A DNA stretch of 64,000 nt from the NCBI GenBank assembly GCA_965279635.1, contig OZ257253.1, positions 257,506 to 321,505 of the forward strand, read 5' to 3'. The notes beneath the pieces are model-generated. The model was not told the origin of the DNA, ran no database searches, and was given only the letters and a program-made list of their open reading frames with translations. Below, piece after piece: positions 964 through 52,756 of the stretch; within the stretch, counting starts at the first letter, position 1, and every line of letters begins with the position of its first letter. The stretch comes from Sediminibacterium sp. (GTDB lineage: Bacteria; Bacteroidota; Bacteroidia; Chitinophagales; Chitinophagaceae). Position numbers and translations under genes: made by a program.

Positions 964-1902
964 TCAGGTCCATTCCACCGGCCGCAAACAAACCTGCCAC
1001 AATCTATCTTCTGCTGATCCCGGCACAGGTTGATGATCGTACACCCATCTTGCCCTTGGCGGTAAACTCATCAGTATGCTTTCTGTTCTGCCATTTGTTT
1101 TTAACCCGAAAATGGTTCCGCGATCATGCAGCAGGTTGAACTCAACATATCTTCCCCTGCGTATTTCCTGCCATTCGATTTCTCTCGCACTGTAGGGTAT
1201 ATCCTTTCTTTTGCTAACGATCGGCAAGTAGCTGTTGAGGAACCCATTTCCATTCGCCTGCTGGAACAAAAATAAGTTTTCAATATCCATTTTTGCATCC
1301 GGCCTGAGGTGATCGTAAAATATACCACCGATACCACGGGTTTCGCGGTTGCGGTGATAGTTCACAAAGTATTCATCGCATTGCTGTTTATAGCGCGGGT
1401 ATAAATCATTGTCAAATGTATCCAGCACATTTTTCAGGTACTGGTGAAAATATTTGGCGTCTTCTTCAAAAAGATAATAGGGTGTAAGATCCGTTCCTCC
1501 GCCAAACCAGCGGTCGGTGATATTTCCGGCCGTATCATATAATTCAAAATACCGCCAATTGGCATGCACGGTGGGCACGTAGGGATTTTGTGGATGTAGT
1601 ACCAATGACAGGCCGCAGGCAAACCATTGCTCACCTTCTATCTGTAATTGTTTGCGCATGGTATCGGTTACTTCTCCATACACAACCGAGGTATTTACAC
1701 CGCCTTTTTCAAATATGTTCCCATTACTGATGGTCATTGTTTTGCCGCCACCACCTTTTCCCCTTTCCCAATTATCTGTTGTAAAAACGGATTGGCCATC
1801 TGCCTGTTCCAAACCTTTGGTAATGGTATCCTGGAGTTGATGAATATAGTTTACCCATCTTTCTCTGAATCCACCGGGTTGATATGTTTGTGTACCGCTC
1901 AT
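964..1902 (-). CDS. hemF: oxygen-dependent coproporphyrinogen III oxidase
   Basis: 312-aa ORF with [12 protein letters not shown] and [15 protein letters not shown] motifs typical of HemF. Its start overlaps the hemE stop as ATGA. Confidence 0.93.
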
Positions 1903-2930
1903 TTGTTGTGACGGAAATTTTTAACCGTATCTACAAATGCTTTTGCATGATCCACCGGCACATTCGGCAAAATACCATGACCGAGATTGGCAATATGCCT
2001 GCCCGGTCCGAAAGCCTGTAACATTTCGGTCACTTCTTTTTGGATGACGGGTATCGGTGACAATAATTTAGCAGGATCAAAATTGCCCTGTAGTGTAATA
2101 TTCTCTCCCGCAAATTTCCTCGCCAATTGCGGTGGTATGCACCAGTCGATACCCAGGCCATGCGCACCGGTGGCTGTCATGGCTTCAAGACTATGCCAGG
2201 CGCCTTTGGCGAAGATGATAGTGGGTACTTCCTCTTTTAAAGCAGCAACAATCTGCCGGATATACTTGAGAGAAATAGTTTCAAAATCTTCCGGGCTCAG
2301 CAATCCACCCCAGCTGTCGAATACCTGTATAATATCTGCCCCTGCTTTTACCTGCGCTTTCAGGTAAGCAATGGTGGTATCGGTGATCATTTGTAATAAT
2401 TGATGCGCCAGTTCAGGTTGGGTATAGCAGAATGCTTTTGCCTCATCAAAGGTTTTGGAACCTTTGCCCTGTACCATATAACATAAAATAGTCCATGGTG
2501 CGCCGGCGAAGCCGATCAGGGGTACACGGTTATTGAGTTCTTGCTTGATGAGTTTGATCGCATCAAATACATAGCCCAGTGTTTCATCTACATCCGGTAC
2601 ACGCACCCTTGACAGGTCATTGGCTGTTTTGATAGGAGCAGGCAAAAATGGCCCCTTGCTTTCGATCAGTTGTACTTCCAGTCCCATTGCCTGCGGAACT
2701 ACGAGTATATCTGAAAAAAGTATTGCGGCATCCACACCAACGATATCGATGGGTTGCAAAGTTATTTCGCAGGCGAGTTCCGGTGTCTGGCAGCGTTCGA
2801 AGAAGCCGTACTTTTCACGCAGTACCATGTATTCGGGTAAATAACGGCCTGCCTGACGCATCATCCATACAGGGGTTCTTTCTGTAGGTTCGCCACGGAG
2901 TGTTTTGAGTATGAGATCGTTTTTGAGCAT
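1899..2930 (-). CDS. hemE: uroporphyrinogen decarboxylase
   Basis: N-terminus [34 protein letters not shown] is the canonical HemE start. The track ORF extends to 3005, but that extension reads through an intergenic hairpin, so I chose the ATG at 2930. Confidence 0.92.
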
Positions 2931-2960
2931 TTTTTTGTGGATTGTCTTTGGTGAATTGTC

Positions 2961-3020
2961 AGTAGTGAGTAGGCAGTAGTGAGTAACAATATACTCACCA
3001 CTCACTACTGCCTACTCACT
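2961..3020. repeat. word hairpin (agtagtgagt words) at the hemD/hemE junction
   Basis: Perfect 21-bp stem, 2964-2984 with 3000-3020, and a 15-nt loop. The right arm contains the last hemD codons and its stop. Confidence 0.9.
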
Positions 3021-3716
3021 AAAATAACTTATCGCCTGTTCTACCAGTTTATCCTTACCAGGTTCATCGCTGATGATAATTTCGTTCTTACAAAATTTGC
3101 GGACTGTTTTTTTGGTGGTATCGCCTATCGCGAATACAATACAGTTTTCTGCAAGTGTGTTTATCGAAAAAAAACTTTCTACTGCACTTGGGCTGAAGAA
3201 TAAAACTGCATCATACTGCTTACCTGTTTTTTGAGGCGTTGCCGTGGTTTCGTAAACGATGATTTCATTGACGGTGATATCATTGTTGCGGAGCTTGTCC
3301 GGCAATTCATTCCTTCGTTGGTTGCCGCAGAAAAAGATCACTTCATCCGTATCGTCGTTCTCAATGATCGTGTCTGCCAGTTCTGACGCGGAGTTTGCCT
3401 CTCCTTCAATGGCATCTGTTCCGAAGTATTCTTTTACCAGTTGTTTGGTGCGGTGCCCCATGCAGTAAATACGCCATTCGGGCATCTGGCCGTTGAGCAT
3501 GGAAATGACTGATTCAACAGCATTCATACTGGTAAAGACAACGGTTGCATATTCTATGGCCGCCAGTTCTATTTCCTGTTGTATCTCGATGGACTGTACA
3601 GGTTCGGTTTCGATAAATGACAACTCATCGATCCCGATATTTTTTTCACGTGCTTTGTTGACCAGGAAACTGTCAACCGGGCGGGTGGATAATATGGTTG
3701 TTTTATATGCCTGCAT
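3012..3716 (-). CDS. hemD: uroporphyrinogen-III synthase
   Basis: Called from its position between hemC and hemE, its ~234-aa size and HEM4-like two-lobed alpha/beta sequence. Start taken at MQAYKTTILSTRPV, a 14-nt overlap with the hemC end. Family motifs are weak. Confidence 0.7.
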   Translation of the reverse strand: MQAYKTTILSTRPVDSFLVNKAREKNIGIDELSFIETEPVQSIEIQQEIELAAIEYATVVFTSMNAVESVISMLNGQMPEWRIYCMGHRTKQLVKEYFGTDAIEGEANSASELADTIIENDDTDEVIFFCGNQRRNELPDKLRNNDITVNEIIVYETTATPQKTGKQYDAVLFFSPSAVESFFSINTLAENCIVFAIGDTTKKTVRKFCKNEIIISDEPGKDKLVEQAISYFSE

Positions 3717-4680
3717 TCCTGATTGCTTCTCTGATTTTATCGCCGCCGTTGCTGAGTAATTCGTTTGCGGCTTTTGTGCCAAGATCATTTGCTCCGCTAA
3801 CGGGAACTTCCCGTGAAACAGTCGCTTTCTCTTTTCCATCCAGCGACAGTATATTTCCCTGGAAATAAATGGTATCGTCGCGTAACTCTGCCAATGCGCT
3901 GATAGGCGTGGAACAGCCGCCCATCAATACACGCAGAAAGTCCTTTTCAATTTTTGTGCAGAGTGCTGTTGCTGCATCATTTAATAAAGAACAGGCGTCG
4001 TAACTATCCTTGTCATCTTCCCTGCACACTATCATGATCGCTCCTTGTGATGGGGCGGGTAACATCCAGTCGAGTTCAATCGAATTCGCAGGGCGTAATC
4101 CGATACGTTCCAACCCGGCTGCGGCAAATATGGCACCGTCCCAGTTGTTGTCTGCCAGTTTCTGCATCCTCGTATTCACGTTGCCGCGAAGGTTATCCAG
4201 TTGGTGATGTGGGTAGCGATGCAGCCATTGTGCCTTGCGGCGGATGCTGCTGGTGGCAAGGGTGAATGTTGAATGATGAATGTTGAATGATGAATTGTCT
4301 GTTGACCATTGACCATTCACAAATCCCAATGTGTTAAATAATGTTTCTTCATCGCCCTTATACACCAACAGGTCCTTGTAAGAAGCCCTTGTCAATACTG
4401 CTGCCTGTTGTATGCCTTTTGCTAATTGTGTCGGTACATCTTTCATGGAATGAACGGCGATATCTATCCGGTTATTCAGGAGGGCCGCATCCAGTGTTTT
4501 GGTGAAGATGCCCTGTACGCCCATTTCATACAATGGGGTCACAAGATCGATATCGCCTTCGCTTTTGATGTACACGAGTTCGCTGGCGGTGCCCTGTTGC
4601 TGCAATTGCTGCTGCACAAGTGTTGCCTGCCAGACAGCCAGCTGGCTGTCACGGGTTCCTATCCGGATGTTTTTTTTCAT
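3703..4680 (-). CDS. hemC: hydroxymethylbilane synthase (porphobilinogen deaminase), carrying a ~20-aa in-frame repeat-derived insertion
   Basis: Motifs IRIGTRDSQLAVWQA, AVHSMKDVP, LRGNVNTR and GGCSTPI (cofactor Cys). Extra segment GFVNGQWSTDNSSFNIHHSTF lies before the conserved TSSIRR. Confidence 0.93.
   Translation of the reverse strand: MKKNIRIGTRDSQLAVWQATLVQQQLQQQGTASELVYIKSEGDIDLVTPLYEMGVQGIFTKTLDAALLNNRIDIAVHSMKDVPTQLAKGIQQAAVLTRASYKDLLVYKGDEETLFNTLGFVNGQWSTDNSSFNIHHSTFTLATSSIRRKAQWLHRYPHHQLDNLRGNVNTRMQKLADNNWDGAIFAAAGLERIGLRPANSIELDWMLPAPSQGAIMIVCREDDKDSYDACSLLNDAATALCTKIEKDFLRVLMGGCSTPISALAELRDDTIYFQGNILSLDGKEKATVSREVPVSGANDLGTKAANELLSNGGDKIREAIRNAGI
4262..4320. repeat. degenerate word hairpin (gaatgatgaatg words) embedded in-frame in hemC
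   Basis: 4262-4294 matches the intergenic hairpin arm 10608-10640 at 30 of 33 positions. Partner arm 4301-4320 pairs imperfectly. Confidence 0.8.
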
Positions 4681-4682
4681 GA

Positions 4683-5891
4683 TCAGTTGGCGGTCATAAA
4701 ATCATTGATCGCCTCAATATAGTAACATCCCGGCTGATGTTGGCGGCGCATTTTTACGGCCACATTGTTCACAACTTTCTGAATAGCGTCAGAATTGATC
4801 AGCCCGGTATTGGGATATGATGAAAGATAGAGGTCGCAGTGATGCATATCCTTCAGTTTCTGTTTAACAGCTTTTAAAACGCCCACATGGTTGCGTTGCT
4901 GCAGCCAGGTGCAGAATTCATGGATATGTTCTATGATAATGGCTTCTGCCTTAGGTACTTCCGCCAGCCTGTTTTGCAGGGTGGCATCATTGATCTTTGA
5001 TAAACCATCCACATCCACCAGGGTAATATGCGGAAGTTCGCCTGCCGCGGGTTCAATATTATTGGGGATAGAAAGATCGATCAGTATTTTGGGTGAATTG
5101 ACTGTGAGATGCTTTGCAGCAATAATGGGTTTTTCCGCGTTCGTGGCAACAATTACGATATCGGCCGCATCCAGCTCCTGTTGCAGGTATGCATACGAGG
5201 TCGTCAGCAAACCGAGTTCCAGCGCCAGTGCGGTTGCTTTTTCTTCGGTGCGGTTGATCAGTGTGATATCATTGGTGCCGAGATAATCCACCAGGTTCTT
5301 ACAGGTGTTGCGGCCTATTTTGCCTGTGCCGAGTAATAATATTTTTTTGTTTCCGGTATTACCTTTCAGTTGCTCTCTCAGGAACTGGATGGCCGCAAAC
5401 GAAACAGAGATCGTTCCGCCACTCAAAGCGGTTTCTGTTTTTACCTGTTTGGAGGATTGGAGTACGGTATTGACCAGCCTTTCTAAAAACCCGCCTATCG
5501 CCCCATGTTCACGTGCAAATTTGACCGCCTGTTTCAACTGGCCCACAATTTCATAATCGCCGAGTATCTGGGAATCCAGTCCCGCACCAACAGAAAATAA
5601 ATGGTAGATGGCTTCGGTGCCTTGTTTTACATAACAGAGATCCGTAAAAACATCCGCATCACCTGAGGTCTCGTTGCAGAGCAGGTTGATCAGTGCATCG
5701 GCATGGGGGGCAAGTCCATAAATCTCCGTACGGTTACAGGTGCTTACGACAAAAACTTCCTGTACCCCAGCGGCAGCCGCTTTTTGCAGGATGGCTGCAT
5801 ATTGCATTTGGCCAACAGCAAACTGCCCGCGGATGGCCGCGTCGGTTTTTTTGTAGTTGATGCCTGCGATAAAAAAGTGGTCTGTCTGCAT
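4683..5891 (-). CDS. hemA: glutamyl-tRNA reductase
   Basis: STCNRTEIY active-site Cys motif and GTGKIG NADPH site. The track starts at TTG 5903. I prefer ATG 5891 (MQTDHFFIAGINYK) because a -7 box lies at 5911-5918. Confidence 0.9.
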   Translation of the reverse strand: MQTDHFFIAGINYKKTDAAIRGQFAVGQMQYAAILQKAAAAGVQEVFVVSTCNRTEIYGLAPHADALINLLCNETSGDADVFTDLCYVKQGTEAIYHLFSVGAGLDSQILGDYEIVGQLKQAVKFAREHGAIGGFLERLVNTVLQSSKQVKTETALSGGTISVSFAAIQFLREQLKGNTGNKKILLLGTGKIGRNTCKNLVDYLGTNDITLINRTEEKATALALELGLLTTSYAYLQQELDAADIVIVATNAEKPIIAAKHLTVNSPKILIDLSIPNNIEPAAGELPHITLVDVDGLSKINDATLQNRLAEVPKAEAIIIEHIHEFCTWLQQRNHVGVLKAVKQKLKDMHHCDLYLSSYPNTGLINSDAIQKVVNNVAVKMRRQHQPGCYYIEAINDFMTAN

Positions 5892-5910
5892 GTCGGTTGC
5901 CAACGAGCTG

Positions 5911-5918
5911 CAAAGGTA
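5911..5918 (-). promoter_or_regulatory. Bacteroidota sigma-A -7 box TAccTTTG upstream of hemA
   Basis: Exact match to TAnnTTTG on the minus strand, 20 nt upstream of ATG 5891. Confidence 0.55.
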
Positions 5919-6026
5919 TCTGTCAGGATTTTTTTTACAGCATGTTTACGTCATTATATTGTCATTTATAGCGTGTATTTTACATAATCGGTAATCCTGA
6001 ATATCTCTGCGGTAAGCCGCTTGGCC

Positions 6027-6034
6027 TACATTTG
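6027..6034 (+). promoter_or_regulatory. -7 box TAcaTTTG upstream of hemH
   Basis: Exact TAnnTTTG match, 20 nt before ATG 6055. Confidence 0.55.
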
Positions 6035-6054
6035 CAGCCGGATTTCAGACAAAT

Positions 6055-7125
6055 ATGACAACAACTACCCCAAGAGCGATAGTACTGATGAACCTGGGAT
6101 CACCAGATTCTACATCGGTGCGTGATGTACGAACTTACCTGAACGAGTTTTTAATGGATAAGCGGGTGATCGATATGCCATTGGTGACAAGGGCCTTACT
6201 GGTTCGTGGATTGATCGTTCCTTTCCGCGCCCCCAAATCTGCCGAGGCGTACAGGAGCATCTGGACAAAAGAAGGATCACCCTTGATCGTACTCACCAAA
6301 CAATTACAAGCGGCTTTGCAGCAGCAGGTAGATGAACCGGTAGAAATAGCCATGCGTTATGGCCAGCCATCTCCCAAACAGGCTTACGACCGGTTGTTAG
6401 CCGCCAACCCGCAACTGGAAGAAGTGATCCTTGTACCCTTATACCCGCATTATGCCATGAGCAGTTATGAAACAGCGGTGGAATATGCGAAAAAACAACA
6501 CAAGCAATATGGTTATCCTTTTGCGTTAACGGTGATCAAACCATTTTACAATGAACCCGCTTACCTGAATGCACTTGCTGAAAATATGCGGCCCTGGCTG
6601 AGTAAAGAATATGATCATATCTTATTCAGTTATCATGGTATCCCGGAAAGACATGTGCGTAAAACAGATATTACCGGGGGACATTGCCTGTCGATGAGCA
6701 ATTGCTGCGATACAGATTCACCCGCACATGATTATTGTTACCGCCACCAGGTATTCGCTACCACGAAACTGGTGACAAAACAATTGGGCATCCCCGATAA
6801 TAAATGGAGCCTGTCGTTTCAATCAAGACTGGGTAAAGGATGGTTACAGCCATTTACCGATGTACGCCTGGAAGAAATGCCGAAAGAAGGCATCAAAAAA
6901 TTACTGATCGTGAGTCCCGCGTTTGTAAGCGATTGTCTCGAAACACTGGAAGAACTCGAGGAAAGAGGAAAAGAATCTTTTCTCAACGCAGGGGGAGAAT
7001 CGTATGAGATGATACCTTGCCTGAATACGCATCCATTGTGGGTGAATGCCATCAAAGGATGGATTGAAAAATATAAAGCGGGAGATGGGAAGATGATTTT
7101 AAAAAATGGAGTGGTTAGCCGTTAG
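6055..7125 (+). CDS. hemH: ferrochelatase
   Basis: LMNLGSPDS N-terminus and the LFSYHGIPERH catalytic His motif. 356 aa. Confidence 0.93.
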   Translation: MTTTTPRAIVLMNLGSPDSTSVRDVRTYLNEFLMDKRVIDMPLVTRALLVRGLIVPFRAPKSAEAYRSIWTKEGSPLIVLTKQLQAALQQQVDEPVEIAMRYGQPSPKQAYDRLLAANPQLEEVILVPLYPHYAMSSYETAVEYAKKQHKQYGYPFALTVIKPFYNEPAYLNALAENMRPWLSKEYDHILFSYHGIPERHVRKTDITGGHCLSMSNCCDTDSPAHDYCYRHQVFATTKLVTKQLGIPDNKWSLSFQSRLGKGWLQPFTDVRLEEMPKEGIKKLLIVSPAFVSDCLETLEELEERGKESFLNAGGESYEMIPCLNTHPLWVNAIKGWIEKYKAGDGKMILKNGVVSR

Positions 7126-7160
7126 TCCTTGGTTATGGGAAGTATAATTATACCAGGATG

Positions 7161-7182
7161 GGTTTTGTGAGGACACAAAACC
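7161..7182 (+). terminator. small hairpin downstream of hemH
   Basis: ggttttgtg-agga-cacaaaacc, a 9-bp stem 36 nt after the hemH stop. No clear T-tract. Confidence 0.4.
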
Positions 7183-7219
7183 GGCGACCCTCAATGAAGT
7201 GACCGGTTTGGTATTCTCA

Positions 7220-7260
7220 TTCATCATTCAAAATTCATCATTCAAAATTCCCTATTCCCT
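7220..7260. repeat. tandem 14-mer ttcatcattcaaaa x2, followed by ttccct x2, just upstream of hemJ
   Basis: Direct repeats read from the sequence. Same ttcatcattc vocabulary as 10646-10670 and the hemC insert. Confidence 0.8.
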
Positions 7261-7803
7261 ATGTATCTCTATCTGAAAGCGCTCCATATCATCTTCATCG
7301 TAACCTGGTTCGCCGGGCTATTCTATATGCCGAGGCTTTTTATCTATGCAACGGAAGCGGGTGATAAACCGGAACCGGAACGGAAGGTTTTGCGTGAACA
7401 GTTTTCCATCATGATGAAAAGATTGTGGTACGGCATCACCTGGCCATCAGCCATACTTACATTGATATTGGGGCCGGTCGTATTGTTCCAAGGTAACTGG
7501 CATAGGTCATTGTTTGAACCGGAAGGAAAATGGCTGCTGATCAAACTCATTTTTGTGGTGTTTTTATATGTCTACCACTGGTCCATCCACCGCATTTTCC
7601 GCCAGGAAATGAAAGGTGATTTCCGCTACAGTTCCCAGCAATTGCGGGTATGGAACGAAGTGGCCACAGTTTTCCTGATCGCTATCGTAATGCTGGCGGT
7701 CGTGAAACAAAGCATCAGTTTTGTTTGGGGAATAGTGGGGTTACTATTGTTTGTACTCTTACTGATGAGTGCCATCCGCATCTATAAACAGCTGCGCAAA
7801 TAA
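7261..7803 (+). CDS. hemJ: protoporphyrinogen IX oxidase, HemJ/UPF0093-type membrane protein
   Basis: 180 aa with about 4 TM segments. N-terminus YLKALHIIFIVTWFAGLFYMPRLFIY resembles the HemJ family. Sits directly after hemH. Confidence 0.72.
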   Translation: MYLYLKALHIIFIVTWFAGLFYMPRLFIYATEAGDKPEPERKVLREQFSIMMKRLWYGITWPSAILTLILGPVVLFQGNWHRSLFEPEGKWLLIKLIFVVFLYVYHWSIHRIFRQEMKGDFRYSSQQLRVWNEVATVFLIAIVMLAVVKQSISFVWGIVGLLLFVLLLMSAIRIYKQLRK

Positions 7804-7824
7804 ACTCTTTGTGAACCTTTGTGT

Positions 7825-7870
7825 CCTTTGTGTCTTAGTGGTTCTTTTTTGAACCACTAAGACACAAAGG
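7825..7870. terminator. hairpin downstream of hemJ (cctttgtg words)
   Basis: Perfect 20-bp stem, 7825-7844 with 7851-7870, and a tttttt loop. Confidence 0.7.
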
Positions 7871-8005
7871 CCCGAAGAAGGCACGAAGCTTTGTCACTTA
7901 AATGTCATATCTCCCCCGTTTCCCTAATCCGTAAATAGTTTTTCCCGATTCGTCAGCGGGGCGTGTTTTTGCGCGGGCATCTTTGCTGTCGTTAAAACAA
8001 AACGC

Positions 8006-8335
8006 ATGTGTCAGTATCATACATGGTTCCGCGATGAAGAACAGGGGTTTGTGGTAGAATGTGCCCAGTGCCACAAAATACAGGTGGCATTCGGTATGCT
8101 GCTGGCCAGCTTCAGTGAATCGGAATTTCACAGGTTCCGTTCCTATATAAGGACGCGGCTGTATGAAACGATACCCGATGCGCATATCAATGATAAAACC
8201 ATTATGCTGAACACACCCTGTGAATCGCTGAACCTGCTGTTCTCTTACCGGGAGCTGAATGATTTCCATGAAATGCTGGAACAGGCCGACACAGAAATGA
8301 AAACACAAAAAATGCTGCAACTGTTCCATGAATAG
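8006..8335 (+). CDS. hypothetical small protein with a CxxC motif
   Basis: 109-aa ORF with ordinary composition and ECAQCHK. The overlapping antisense ORF 7898..8329 is rich in F/C/H and looks spurious. No family recognised with confidence. Confidence 0.45.
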   Translation: MCQYHTWFRDEEQGFVVECAQCHKIQVAFGMLLASFSESEFHRFRSYIRTRLYETIPDAHINDKTIMLNTPCESLNLLFSYRELNDFHEMLEQADTEMKTQKMLQLFHE

Positions 8336-8431
8336 TTGGCAGTGGAAAGAAGCTAGACGATAGAATCAATATGTCACAAGGCCGCTGTATTCTTACAGGG
8401 GCCATTTTTTAACAACAAAGAAACGGCCGCA

Positions 8432-9604
8432 TTGAAGAAAACTAACAAGGTAAAAGACTTTATTCACCAGGTACATCTCTGGCTGGGTCTTGTGAGCGGT
8501 ATCGTGGTGGTGATTGTGTCCATCACCGGCGCTTTGTATGTATTTGAAGAAGAAGCGCGCGAAATTTTCCAGCATAAATATTTTCATGTAGCCAAGCCGG
8601 GTACACAACGACAAACCATTCAGCAGTTGACTGCGGAAGTAGCAAAGGCCTATCCCAAAGAAAAGATCACAAGCCTGCGGATGATAGAAAAACCGGATGG
8701 GGCGTATATTTTTAATACGAAAAACAGTAAAGCCATCTCTGTTGATCCGTACACCGGTAAAATAATCGGTGACAGGAATACCAAAAAAGATTTCTTCACA
8801 GTGGTATTGGATATCCACCGTCATCTCGCAATGGGTAAGGTAGGTGGCGAGATCGTAAAATGGAACGTACTCATCTTTTTTATCCTTTGTATCAGCGGAC
8901 TCATCCTGTGGTGGCCCAAACAGAAAAAATTCTGGAAACAGGCCACGCGCATCAATCTCAAAACAAAGAACTGGAAGCGGCTTAACTGGGACCTGCACAG
9001 TGTACTGGGTTTTTATGCTTTACTGGTACTATTCATCATCTCACTGACCGGTTTGTTTTTCGCTTTTGATGCGTCAAAGAATATTGTGCGTTTTGCGACC
9101 AACCAGCCCAAGCCAAAAAAAGAAGAAAAACTGGTATCAGCTATTAATAACGGGCAGCAATTTTCCTGGGATGAAGCGTATAAATACACCTCCACCAGTT
9201 ACCCGGGCAGTTACGAAACAATTATCCAGGTACCGGCAGATAGTGCAGGCGCTCTGAGGGTTTTATCAAGATACCCTTATACGATAGCCATGAAACTGAA
9301 CAATATTTATTTTGACCGGTATTCGGGTAAAATTTTGCGGGAGAGTTTATACAGTAATTATACCGCTTACGATAAAGTGGCGAGAAGCAATTACGATCTG
9401 CATACGGGCCGGATCCGTTTATTAGGGATTGGCAGCAAGATCATTTATTGCCTGGCCAGCCTGATCGCCGGTTCATTACCCATTACCGGTTTCCTGGTAT
9501 GGCTGGGGCGGCGGAAGAAGAAAAAAAAGGCGCAAACTCCCGCTATCAGGCGCTTTCGTTTATTTGGCCGGGAAGAAAAACAACCCGTTGAGGCGCTGTC
9601 CTGA
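8432..9604 (+). CDS. PepSY-associated TM-helix protein (PiuB-like, iron-uptake associated)
   Basis: TTG start. N-terminus KDFIHQVHLWLGLVSGIVVVIVSITGALYVFEEE is typical of PepSY_TM proteins. Several TM segments and a basic C-terminal tail. Confidence 0.75.
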   Translation: MKKTNKVKDFIHQVHLWLGLVSGIVVVIVSITGALYVFEEEAREIFQHKYFHVAKPGTQRQTIQQLTAEVAKAYPKEKITSLRMIEKPDGAYIFNTKNSKAISVDPYTGKIIGDRNTKKDFFTVVLDIHRHLAMGKVGGEIVKWNVLIFFILCISGLILWWPKQKKFWKQATRINLKTKNWKRLNWDLHSVLGFYALLVLFIISLTGLFFAFDASKNIVRFATNQPKPKKEEKLVSAINNGQQFSWDEAYKYTSTSYPGSYETIIQVPADSAGALRVLSRYPYTIAMKLNNIYFDRYSGKILRESLYSNYTAYDKVARSNYDLHTGRIRLLGIGSKIIYCLASLIAGSLPITGFLVWLGRRKKKKKAQTPAIRRFRLFGREEKQPVEALS

Positions 9605-9696
9605 ACCGGTTTTCCGTTATCCGTAACTGGAATTTCCCGATTCGGGAGTACTCAATGGACCGTCTGCGGCACTTTTGCACCGTTAAAAAATCACTT

Positions 9697-10608
9697 ATGA
9701 AGAAACTGATCGTTGCATTATTGATGATCGCTGCCACAACAGCCCAGGCACAGGACAAAAAAGAGAAAGAAGCCATCAAAAGCCTTTGCGGCTGTTATGA
9801 AGTAGGCTTTATGTACGCGGAAACCTTTGCTGTTGCTCCGGCTTACGAGTTGTCCAAACCATATAAGGCGAAAGGTCTTGAGTGGGTAGAACCCGTAGAT
9901 CTTGGCGATAAAAAACTGGTACTGCAACACCTGCTGGTAGTACGTGATTCTATGATCGTAAAACACTGGCGCGAAGACTGGGAATATGAAAAAGCCGGTT
10001 TATGGAAATTTGACCATGATGCCAATTGGAAATATGAAGCTACTTCCAAAAAATCAGGTGAATGGACACAAACCGTTTGGGAAACAGATGACGCCCCACG
10101 TTATCAGGGCAGCAGCCGCTGGATAAACAATAACAACCAGTATTACTGGCAAAACACCACAGATGCCCCGCTTCCACGCAGGGAATACTCTGTACGCAGC
10201 GATTATAATGTGCTGGAACGCGGCAATAAAATCATCATCACCGATACCGGCTGGGTGCATGAGCAGGACAACCGCAAAATATTACGCGCAAATGGTACTG
10301 CCGATAAAATACTGGCACAGGAAAAAGGATTCAACATCTATAAAAAAGTGGCCGACTCAAAATGCGCAGTAGCTGCTGCATGGTGGAAAGAACATGGATC
10401 ATTCTGGAACGCGATCCGCTTATCATGGGATGAAGTGCTGAAAGGAAAAACCACTGTAAAACTGTTACCCAAAGTAGACGGCCAGCCTATGTGGCAGCAC
10501 ATGGATCAGCTGGAAAAAGAAAAACTGGCGAGTACAGAACTGAAAGCAAAAGCGAAAACAATATTATCACAGTTTGCTGAAACATCTAATGCAACAGCAC
10601 TGAAGTAG
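9697..10608 (+). CDS. secreted Trp-rich protein of unknown function
   Basis: Signal peptide MKKLIVALLMIAATTAQAQ. 303 aa with many W, D and N residues. Lies between the PepSY gene and a TonB-dependent receptor. No catalytic motif recognised. Confidence 0.6.
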   Translation: MKKLIVALLMIAATTAQAQDKKEKEAIKSLCGCYEVGFMYAETFAVAPAYELSKPYKAKGLEWVEPVDLGDKKLVLQHLLVVRDSMIVKHWREDWEYEKAGLWKFDHDANWKYEATSKKSGEWTQTVWETDDAPRYQGSSRWINNNNQYYWQNTTDAPLPRREYSVRSDYNVLERGNKIIITDTGWVHEQDNRKILRANGTADKILAQEKGFNIYKKVADSKCAVAAAWWKEHGSFWNAIRLSWDEVLKGKTTVKLLPKVDGQPMWQHMDQLEKEKLASTELKAKAKTILSQFAETSNATALK

Positions 10609-10680
10609 TGAATATCGAATGATGAATGTAGAATGATGAAATAACTTCTACATTCATCATTCGATATTCATCATTTTTTC
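10609..10680 (+). terminator. word hairpin plus T-tract after the unknown secreted protein gene
   Basis: Perfect 25-bp stem, 10609-10633 with 10646-10670, followed by tcattttttc. Confidence 0.8.
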
Positions 10681-21038: not shown

Positions 21039-21130
21039 TAGTTGAAAGATGATAGTTGGCAGGTTGAAAAATTTTCAACTCTCAACTCTCAACGCTCAAC
21101 TCTCAACTGTTATCAATCAACCTTTCAACC
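21035..21130. repeat. gttgaNag / ctcaac word repeat centred on palindrome gttgaaaaattttcaac
   Basis: Left half holds ggttgata/gttgaaag/gttggcag/gttgaaaa words. Right half holds five tandem (t/g)ctcaac words. Spans the rbfA stop to the lolE-like start. Confidence 0.7.
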
Positions 21131-23399: not shown

Positions 23400-23509
23400 G
23401 CGAAAATAGGAAATAGTTTGGAGTTTGGGGTTTGCGGTTTGGGGTCATCAGTGCGGAATACAAACTCTAAACTCCCAACTCCAAACCCCAAACTATTTCC
23501 TATTTTCGC
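23400..23509. repeat. word palindrome (gtttggrg words) filling the divergent transketolase/frr promoter region
   Basis: Arms 23400-23445 and 23461-23509. The outer 20 nt are perfect (gcgaaaataggaaatagttt) and the inner part is imperfect. Confidence 0.85.
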
Positions 23510-27435: not shown

Positions 27436-27469
27436 ATCGGCGAAACAGGATAATTAATAACACCTACTA

Positions 27470-27524
27470 AATCTGTGAATCTGTGGCGAATAATTGTACG
27501 CCACAGATTCACAGATTTTTTTTG
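27470..27524 (+). terminator. intrinsic terminator for scpA (aatctgtg words)
   Basis: Perfect 19-bp stem, 27470-27488 with 27499-27517, followed by tttttttg. Confidence 0.85.
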
Positions 27525-41061: not shown

Positions 41062-41075
41062 ACAAACTTTTATTA

Positions 41076-41119
41076 AAGCCGCAGATTCGCAGATTATTTA
41101 ATCTGCGAATCTGCGGCTT
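41076..41119. terminator. bidirectional terminator between the convergent small-subunit gene and metG
   Basis: Perfect 20-bp stem, 41076-41095 with 41100-41119, a 4-nt loop and A/T-rich flanks (gcagattc words). Confidence 0.85.
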
Positions 41120-41125
41120 ATATTT

Positions 41126-52506: not shown

Positions 52507-52620
52507 TAGTTTGTTTTGGTGTAAGTTCCGATTTTAGCAGATAGGAACAATAGATAAGAAAAAGGCGTCTGAAATTCCTTAGCACTTGTTTAAAATGATG
52601 ATCCTGAAACTATCGAATCT

Positions 52621-52690
52621 TTTTTCAACACAGAGATCACAGAGTAAACAGAGGGCCCTCTGTCTACTCTGTGATCTCTGTGTTGAAAAA
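52621..52690. terminator. 70-bp near-perfect loopless palindrome (cacagag words) flanked by T- and A-runs
   Basis: Left half 52621-55 and right half 52656-90, with a single mismatch. Centre is cagaggg|ccctctg. Confidence 0.85.
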
Positions 52691-52756
52691 AGATTTGCCT
52701 TCCAATCCTGCACGCTATTATTAAACAGGCGCTAAACGACCATGATCTATTAAAAA

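Follow-up and report, generated by a model that had tools for sequence, protein, structure and literature searches.

This study concerns a 64,000-nt stretch of a Sediminibacterium sp. genome (NCBI GenBank assembly GCA_965279635.1, contig OZ257253.1, positions 257,506 to 321,505), here called the window, and an in-frame insert within its essential gene hemC. The gene encodes hydroxymethylbilane synthase (porphobilinogen deaminase, HemC). Its product contains the Pfam domains PF01379 (Porphobil_deam) and PF03900 (Porphobil_deamC), with E values of 2e-68 and 5e-15, matches the E. coli HemC chains 1pda and 1ah5 in the PDB at E 1e-50 (phmmer), and was assigned the HemC fold by Foldseek. The SS-RR motif, the catalytic Asp and the cofactor Cys are conserved, and D81, S144, S145, R147, R148 and C256 are invariant in the homologue alignments. 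The insert consists of two inverted arms made of 7-nt units (Table 1). An earlier reading of this DNA, based on the letters alone (the sequence-only reading), had described it as an intergenic-type hairpin repeat that invaded the gene.

Results

The insert in hemC and its two arms

Residues 119-148 of HemC read GFVNGQWSTDNSSFNIHHSTFTLATSSIRR, and the insert occupies the first part of this segment. The repeat is separated from the TSSIRR motif by three residues, TLA. As the sequence-only reading had noted, the reading frame stays open through the insert, in the coding context that it described. It had also put E. coli HemC at about 19-20 residues shorter here, and the phmmer alignments with 1pda and 1ah5 placed gaps of 15 and 4 residues, 19 in all, in exactly the insert segment. 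The insert thus adds approximately 19 residues compared with HemC of E. coli, Flavobacteriales and basal Chitinophagaceae. Direct comparison reproduced the identity of 4262-4294 to the intergenic 10608-10640 at 30/33 positions, and the degenerate partner arm at 4301-4320, whose reverse complement is GTGAATGGTCAATGGTCAAC, was also present. The complementarity of 4262-4280 and 4302-4320 was 79%. A period-7 scan marked 4261-4295 with a lag-7 identity of at least 18/21 and four copies of the unit GAATGAT/GAATGTT. With at least three consecutive 7-nt units, the 3' arm is a heptanucleotide array.

In most insert-bearing hemC genes, the extra DNA is likewise made of two inverted arrays of a 7-nt unit. 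The 5' arm, (GTGAATG/GTCAATG)n, encodes VNG(E/Q)W, and the 3' arm, (CCATTCA/CTCACCA/…)n, encodes PFTIHHSP, LTTHHSPL, FNIHHSTF and similar peptides. The insert of Cnuella (L013) is 168 nt long and has several units, and many orthologues keep just one arm. Computed translation of (CCATTCA)n gave the cyclic peptide PFTIHHS in all three frames with no stops, whereas (TGAATGG)n contained TGA in each frame, at intervals of 21 nt. Hence the 5' arm in hemC, with TGA replaced by TCA, TCG or CAA, is degenerate in every case, while the 3' arm is able to stay a clean array.

Distribution of the insert among relatives

We compared 64 kb of the 4.47-Mb source genome with ±10 kb around the locus in each relative. 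The relatives' loci were taken from genomes, one for each species, and from metagenomes, and all counts given here are among the matches listed. The length of the loop was measured from KD(I/L)LV to the RR motif. It was 24-26 (occasionally 29) residues in each Flavobacteriales locus and 27-28 residues in approximately 15 Chitinophagaceae loci, for example YKNDSSFLEDKKGTATIATSS. In the other Chitinophagaceae loci it was 32-67 residues, with 4 to approximately 40 extra residues. Approximately 90 Flavobacteriales and other loci, together with the 15 or so Chitinophagaceae loci, were without the segment. The best 120 database homologues (69-76% identity, 316-332 aa) all had it at the same place, and the 50%-clustering representatives P0123, P0125 and P0171 had 30-50 extra residues in the same loop. 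These results indicate that the segment is derived within Chitinophagaceae and is neither phylum-wide nor strain-specific. The sequence-only reading had proposed an alignment of orthologues, in which a homologous segment across the phylum would have spoken for an ancestral loop. The alignment gave a segment found clade-wide in some Chitinophagaceae and missing from Flavobacteriales and many other Chitinophagaceae.

One of the relatives' loci, L001 (CALRMK020000004.1), belongs to a metagenome-assembled genome titled 'Caulobacter sp.'. Its contig has a typical Chitinophagaceae haem cluster with a HemC 74% identical to that of the window, and the label or the bin is probably wrong.

Related repeats in the window

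When the 24-mer GAATGATGAATGTTGAATGATGAA was searched for with up to 3 mismatches, 6 sites were found in the window (in hemC, at 7220-7243 and within 10617-10676). None was found in 100 dinucleotide-preserving shuffles, which indicates that the repeat match is real and non-random. The intergenic copy at 10608 follows the DUF6607 gene (9655..10608, Pfam). Its hairpin (10608-10673) has a folding energy of -38.5 kcal/mol (z -9.05) and stop codons in all three frames. The hairpin is terminator-like in that a T-run (TCATTTTTT) directly follows the stem, past the DUF6607 stop codon, and this copy may serve as a terminator. A consensus terminator scan did not list it even though a stem-loop and T-run are present after the stop, because its loop is 12 nt (longer than 8 nt) and its stem is AT-rich with few G-C pairs.

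The array at 7218-7250 is a third copy, beyond the two in the sequence-only reading. It is located 11 nt upstream of the hemJ-like start, and the hemC 3' arm is identical to 7219-7250 at 30/32 positions. All three GAATGAT-type copies (hemC, 7218-7250 and 10608-10673) lie inside 6.4 kb, and the rest of the window (~53 kb) contains none. This clustering, from 4262 to 10680, suggests local spread or local gene conversion.

The orthologues of the hemH-hemJ spacer (window 7126-7260) have tandem-array hairpins in many Chitinophagaceae and Flavobacteriales (L001, L008, L013, L068, L161-L163, L030, L037, L055, L071, L101, L112 and others), with a different 7-8-nt unit in nearly each genome. In L007 and L048, CGTC-type repetitive extragenic palindromes (REPs) stand in place of the arrays. 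The spacer hairpin of both L162 and L163 is built of CATTCAACATT units; this sharing and the clustering of the copies in the window are consistent with local exchange.

Six more long intergenic hairpins are present in the window, at 7823-7872, 21040-21110, 23413-23500, 27469-27518, 41075-41120 and 52616-52695. At least five of the six have arms built as tandem arrays of their own 7-9-nt units, which are CTCAACT, GTTTGGG, ATCTGTGA, CGCAGATT and CACAGAG. Hairpins with tandem-array arms look like a general class in the source genome with many unit families.

Evolution of the two arms

The conservation of each arm was examined in the 120 homologues. The mean frequency of the top residue in the 5' arm, L118-S126 (LGFVNG[E/Q]WS), was 0.77, compared to 0.79 for the whole protein, and W125 was found in 112/120. 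The orthologous codons of this arm differ synonymously (Leu TTG/CTC/TTA/CTT/CTG; Gly GGA/GGC/GGT/GGG), which indicates constraint at the amino-acid level. From the homologue alignment, the 5' arm appears to have been exapted as a conserved peptide, LGFVNG[E/Q]W. The middle of the insert and the 3' arm were hypervariable, with a top-residue frequency of 0.45. Indels of 7 residues (21 nt) were found in the 3' arm, P0062 being 7 residues longer and P0057, P0059 and P0061 7 residues shorter; slippage of 7-nt units, filtered for frame, would give exactly such indels.

We then compared each insert with all loci by BLAST, with the inserts masked. Matches to insert DNA occurred at 13 sites per 404 kb in the own locus and at 34 sites per 16.1 Mb-equivalents in other Chitinophagaceae loci, an enrichment of approximately 15-fold (Poisson P≈1e-11). 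The flavour of the unit also agreed within a genome, being TTCAxCA in the window, CTCACxA in L001 and CCATGGx in L162. In a synonymous-recoding test, the arm peptide was recoded and its best own-locus match was compared with that of the native codons. For the window, the native codons matched at 31/36 positions and the recoded ones at a mean of 24.2 (P=0.007). The native match was 27/30 in L001 (P=0.003), 23/30 in L005 (P=0.003), 26/30 and 29/33 for the two arms of L082 (P<=0.007), and 39/45 in L007, where recoding reached at most 33 (P=0.003). Since native codons did better than synonymous recodings, the resemblance to the arrays is not a by-product of the peptide. A 5' arm that is orthologous but synonymously diverged within the clade of the window, next to a 3' arm that tracks its own genome, points to concerted evolution and not to wholesale independent insertion. 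These comparisons imply that the 3' arm may evolve in concert with the arrays of its own genome, via conversion or replacement.

Structure of the loop and stability of the hairpin

An AlphaFold (AF2) model of HemC was built from a diverse alignment of 91 sequences and had a mean predicted local distance difference test score (pLDDT) of 94.1; a model from a shallow 31-sequence alignment (pLDDT 66.7) was discarded. Compared to E. coli 1AH5, the model gave template modelling (TM) scores of 0.83/0.90 in Foldseek. The insert was the least confident segment, its two 10-residue blocks having the lowest pLDDT in the protein (74 and 67). The sequence-only reading had placed the segment between domains. 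In the model it lies instead within domain 2, after helix 111-118 and before strand 140-142. We take the site to be a domain 2 loop, and not the inter-domain hinge, of the E. coli HemC structure (Louie et al. 1992). The enzyme fold is predicted to be undisturbed around the insert. The loop is probably exposed at the surface, as had been proposed, an assignment made from low pLDDT and position.

The hairpin that had been described in hemC was borne out in its inverted arms but not in its stability. The stability of the RNA of the window insert was no better than that of shuffled sequences (z -0.6) or of synonymous recodings (z -1.0, p 0.17), and selection at the level of the hairpin in the window copy was rejected on these grounds. 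There was no T-run after the insert on the coding strand, and a scan of the whole window at the Rfam gathering threshold gave no match. Without T-run, Rfam match or excess stability, the window hairpin is regarded as a relic; it is decayed and probably without RNA-level function. The hairpins of L082 (p 0.007), L018 (p 0.003), L162 (p 0.03) and L008 (p 0.04) were more stable than synonymous recodings, and we read them as younger copies.

Other repeats at the hemC loop and in other genes

The same hemC loop holds other repeats in other relatives. In L007 (Sediminibacterium magnilacihabitans), it contains part of a CGTC-tagged REP (CGTCATCCCGAGCGCAGCCGAGGGACCTC…), including the REP loop region. 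Several near-identical intergenic copies of this REP occur within 10 kb, and the insert matches dispersed copies at 39/45 positions. The loop of L022 (Niabella) has a TTTCAGN/CTGAAAC hairpin, that of L018 an unrelated perfect palindrome, and those of L095 and L102 long unrelated inserts. The simplest reading of this recurrent colonisation is survivorship: in an essential enzyme, only insertions into a tolerant loop are observed.

Within the 64-kb window, hemC was the only invaded gene, with the isoleucyl-tRNA synthetase (IleRS) of relatives as a possible second host. In-frame period-7 arrays lie inside IleRS in L161 (3972-4002), L016 (5623-5650) and L006 (595-632); (CAGACTC)3 encodes IRLQTPDSKP and (AATTCGA)4 encodes EFEIRNSKFEI, the latter unit being that of the L006 hemC loop. 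The length of IleRS is unchanged compared to orthologues, which suggests overwriting rather than insertion. In the metagenome contig L162 (3445-6797), IleRS is called as two overlapping genes of 298 aa and 845 aa, and this split could be a frameshift or an assembly error.

A search with an idealised two-arm peptide, which is insensitive to short matches in long proteins, returned only domain-less 'hypothetical proteins' of 31-77 aa from many phyla. PFTIHHS-type translations of (CCATTCA)n (P0271-P0390) are annotated in this way in Mesorhizobium, Chloroflexi (Promineifilaceae), Chamaesiphon, Prosthecochloris, Aminicenantes, Cloacimonetes and Chitinophagaceae. The CCATTCA heptamer array is widespread and is a source of spurious gene calls.

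Genomic context

The insert lies in a haem-biosynthesis cluster (Table 1), the synteny of which is repeated in relatives L161-L164. A Pfam scan of the ten open reading frames (ORFs) around hemC found no transposase; REP-associated tyrosine transposases (RAYTs) were not searched for genome-wide. The longest ORF for hemD shares 137 nt with hemC, and its HEM4 Pfam match begins at residue 60. The actual hemD start is probably further downstream, near the hemC stop, as the overlap in relatives is 8-26 nt.

Table 1. Coordinates of the hemC insert, related repeats and haem genes in the window.
Feature	Position	Strand	Remarks
Haem-biosynthesis cluster, hemE to hemJ-like	1899..7803	both strands	Pfam
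hemE	1899-3005	-	Pfam
hemD	3012-3839	-	Pfam
hemC (hydroxymethylbilane synthase / porphobilinogen deaminase)	3703..4680	-	325 aa ORF, hosts the insert
3' arm (coding strand), (CATTCAN)n array	4262..4294	-	peptide SSFNIHHSTFT; the part resembling the intergenic copies
In-frame insert, HemC residues 119-139	4264..4326	-	21 residues, GFVNGQWSTDNSSFNIHHSTF
5' arm (coding strand), GTGAATG GTCAATG GTCAAC	4301..4329	-	peptide LGFVNGQWS; inverted repeat, degenerate
hemA	4683-5903	-	Pfam
hemH	6055-7125	+	Pfam
Solo array, GAATGAT/GAATTTT	7218..7250	-	hemH-hemJ spacer; same unit family as the hemC arm
hemJ-like (UPF0093)	7261-7803	+	Pfam
Near-perfect intergenic hairpin	10608..10680	+	7-nt unit family as in hemC; begins at the DUF6607 stop codon, then TCATTTTTT

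Discussion

HemC residues 119-139 are probably an old in-frame remnant of a palindromic repeat with arms of 7-nt arrays, (GTGAATG)n…(CATTCAC)n, of which the 5' arm appears to have been exapted and the 3' arm is still repeat-like. Intergenic hairpins with such 7-nt-array arms are abundant in Bacteroidota. The insertion relative to the basal state, the kinship to intergenic arrays, the tracking of the own genome at synonymous sites and the conservation of the 5' arm as protein carry this reading; how the repeat first entered, the part played by gene conversion and the exposure of the loop are inferred. A palindromic repeat would have entered domain 2 at a permissive loop that follows a short helix and precedes the strand leading to the catalytic SS-RR motif. 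The 5' arm, with TGA in each frame per 21 nt, could persist solely in a stop-purged, degenerate form and would later have turned into the conserved peptide. The 3' arm, open in all frames, would still behave as repeat DNA, changing its length by 7 residues (21 nt). Its unit may follow the nearby arrays of the same genome via short-patch gene conversion and/or slippage, re-insertion being another possibility. Of the proposal that a repeat invaded the coding sequence and was tolerated or exapted, the derived in-frame insertion is supported, and exaptation appears to hold for the 5' arm only. Transposition of a mobile element would explain the insert no better than gene conversion or slippage that drew on nearby arrays.

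Several observations weigh against this reading. In the loci compared, neither an empty/filled pair between close strains nor a target-site duplication or transposase was found, and the term 'insertion' therefore rests on the phylogenetic distribution. The single-gene neighbour-joining (NJ) tree of HemC mixes insert-bearing and basal lineages, which requires that the insert was precisely lost several times or else gained several times, with LGFVNGQW peptides arising convergently. We could not decide from this tree between a single gain with several losses and several gains. Own-locus tracking was not significant in the recoding test for L161, L164 and L013. The conservation of the 5' arm could also result in part from repeated homogenisation and not from protein function.

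The insert may also have grown in place, through slippage of a chance 7-nt motif and quasi-palindrome template switching in hemC, its likeness to the intergenic copies then being due to a mutational process shared across the genome. According to the summary of Mrazek 2007 given in PMC4679880, heptanucleotide arrays are the commonest long class of SSRs (simple sequence repeats) among prokaryotes, and the 21-nt indels of the hemC 3' arm, the change of unit between hemH-hemJ spacers and the IleRS arrays of unaltered length (L161, L016, L006) would all fit such growth. However, near-identical stretches of 24-33 nt, synonymous positions included, are common to hemC and the nearby intergenic copies, and the L007 loop holds part of a dispersed REP with its loop region. 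Independent growth would not produce the unit sequence of the own genome, and we consider this explanation unlikely. [quoted passage not shown] It would also suit the hairpins of L082, L018 and L162, which are stronger than the protein sequence alone predicts and suggest young copies. But the insert and its flanks are common to approximately 120 homologues, down to 69% identity, with synonymous divergence in the 5' arm, the window hairpin is decayed, and no transposase or target-site duplication was seen. The intact intergenic copy is interrupted by stops in each frame, and HemC would be cut short if such a copy were newly inserted. A recent event is thus very improbable.

A functional RNA or DNA hairpin in the hemA-hemC-hemD-hemE operon, which might act, for example, in mRNA processing, in pausing or in attenuation and carry the peptide along as a passenger, has even less to recommend it, and we regard it as highly improbable. 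The excess stability in L082, L018, L162 and L008 (p 0.003-0.04) and the frequent position of tandem-array hairpins at gene ends or starts would agree with a function of this kind. The window copy, however, shows no such excess against shuffles (z -0.6) or recodings (z -1.0), the distribution is patchy with many orthologues having one arm, and neither a T-run on the coding strand nor an Rfam match was found. That the segment is an ancestral functional loop of HemC with a coincidental likeness to hairpin repeats is hardly credible. The well-conserved 5' arm peptide, with W125 in 112/120 homologues of the clade, is what such a loop would give. Yet the segment is missing from all Flavobacteriales, E. 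coli and many Chitinophagaceae, 0/100 shuffles reproduce the repeat match, the synonymous-site test gave P=0.007, and the arms form an inverted repeat in many lineages.

Beyond the reading of the insert as an old, partly exapted repeat, we tentatively raise a wider possibility, which we hold to be less than probable. Tandem-array hairpins with 7-8-nt units may be a phylum-wide, self-renewing class in Bacteroidota, and the hemC loop a recurrent landing pad at which such repeats, as well as unrelated REPs, are converted to protein. The positions of the class (the hemH-hemJ spacer, the hemC loop) would be fixed, and the units would be rewritten in each genome by local gene conversion or template switching. 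At the landing pad, one arm would become fixed as a functional peptide, and the other would stay a live repeat inside an essential gene.

The reading of the insert as an old repeat remnant means that non-coding repeat DNA became part of an essential, highly conserved enzyme outside Rickettsia. The relatives offer a series of stages, from young, strongly pairing copies (L082) through the half-exapted copy of the window to inserts that were lost or replaced. From the difference between a stop-laden and an open arm follows a simple rule that tells the translatable half of a palindrome from the other, and the tracking of the 3' arm at synonymous sites suggests that coding and intergenic repeats still exchange DNA. 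For practical purposes, HemC has in this loop a natural site that permits insertions, and the repeats yield spurious 'hypothetical protein' calls of the PFTIHHS type in many phyla.

Several known systems resemble the hemC element in part; in the literature searched, we found no description of hairpins with tandem-heptamer arms in Chitinophagaceae. The cyanobacterial short tandemly repeated repetitive (STRR) and TAACTGA heptanucleotide arrays are also tandem 7-nt units, mainly intergenic and often beside start codons, with a patchy distribution that includes Bacteroidetes. TAACTGA-type arrays can be translated from one strand and are full of stops on the other (MacGregor 2015, PMC4679880), as here, where the open orientation gives a 7-residue cyclic peptide. 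Those arrays are described as direct repeats, whereas the present hairpin arises from a pair of inverted arrays, and a copy of it has been fixed and partly exapted in an essential gene. In-frame MITE insertions, such as intragenic enterobacterial repetitive intergenic consensus (ERIC) sequences, the Coxiella QMITE and Anabaena MITEs (PMC10969869), are likewise small non-coding repeats fused in-frame with host ORFs. However, MITEs are 70-300 bp with terminal inverted repeats and target-site duplications, neither of which was seen in the hemC element. Membership in the MITEs was rejected, as no direct repeat flanks the insert and the element has the plain form of a palindrome built from tandem units.

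REPs and REPINs are short, genome-specific palindromes found mainly downstream of genes, and their unit sequence, like that of the arrays, varies by genome. Intragenic REPs are on record, and in two Xanthomonas species different REPs occupy about the same site of recB (Di Nocera et al. 2013, PMC3733652). The hemC loop itself has a true CGTC-tagged REP in L007, from a family different from that of the window. Unlike REPs, the window element has no consistent GTAG/CGTC tag (1/3 copies), and its arms are tandem heptamers and not a unique stem. Membership in the GTAG-tagged REPs was rejected because, by eye, GTAG precedes the 10608 copy only, where it overlaps the stop codon, and the hemC and 7218 copies are without it.

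Rickettsia palindromic elements (RPEs; Ogata et al. 2000) are, according to the review PMC10969869 and the citation in PMC3733652, in-frame palindromic repeats in functional genes. As with RPEs, palindromic repeats of the same family occur both between genes and in-frame in an intact, conserved housekeeping or metabolic gene with a functional product (identities of 30/33 and 30/32), and the insertion is absent outside its lineage. The added peptide stands at a structurally tolerant site and has been kept over long evolutionary time, as in RPEs. RPEs differ in size (approximately 100-150 bp), encode a conserved peptide of their own and lack an internal short-period repeat, whereas the hemC insert is approximately 60 bp of 7-nt tandem units, one arm of which is intrinsically stop-laden. 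The host phylum here is Bacteroidota, and the data examined gave one clear host gene, hemC, with IleRS as a possible second. With these differences, the hemC insert is a further case of repeat DNA turned into protein, a kind already known from Rickettsia.

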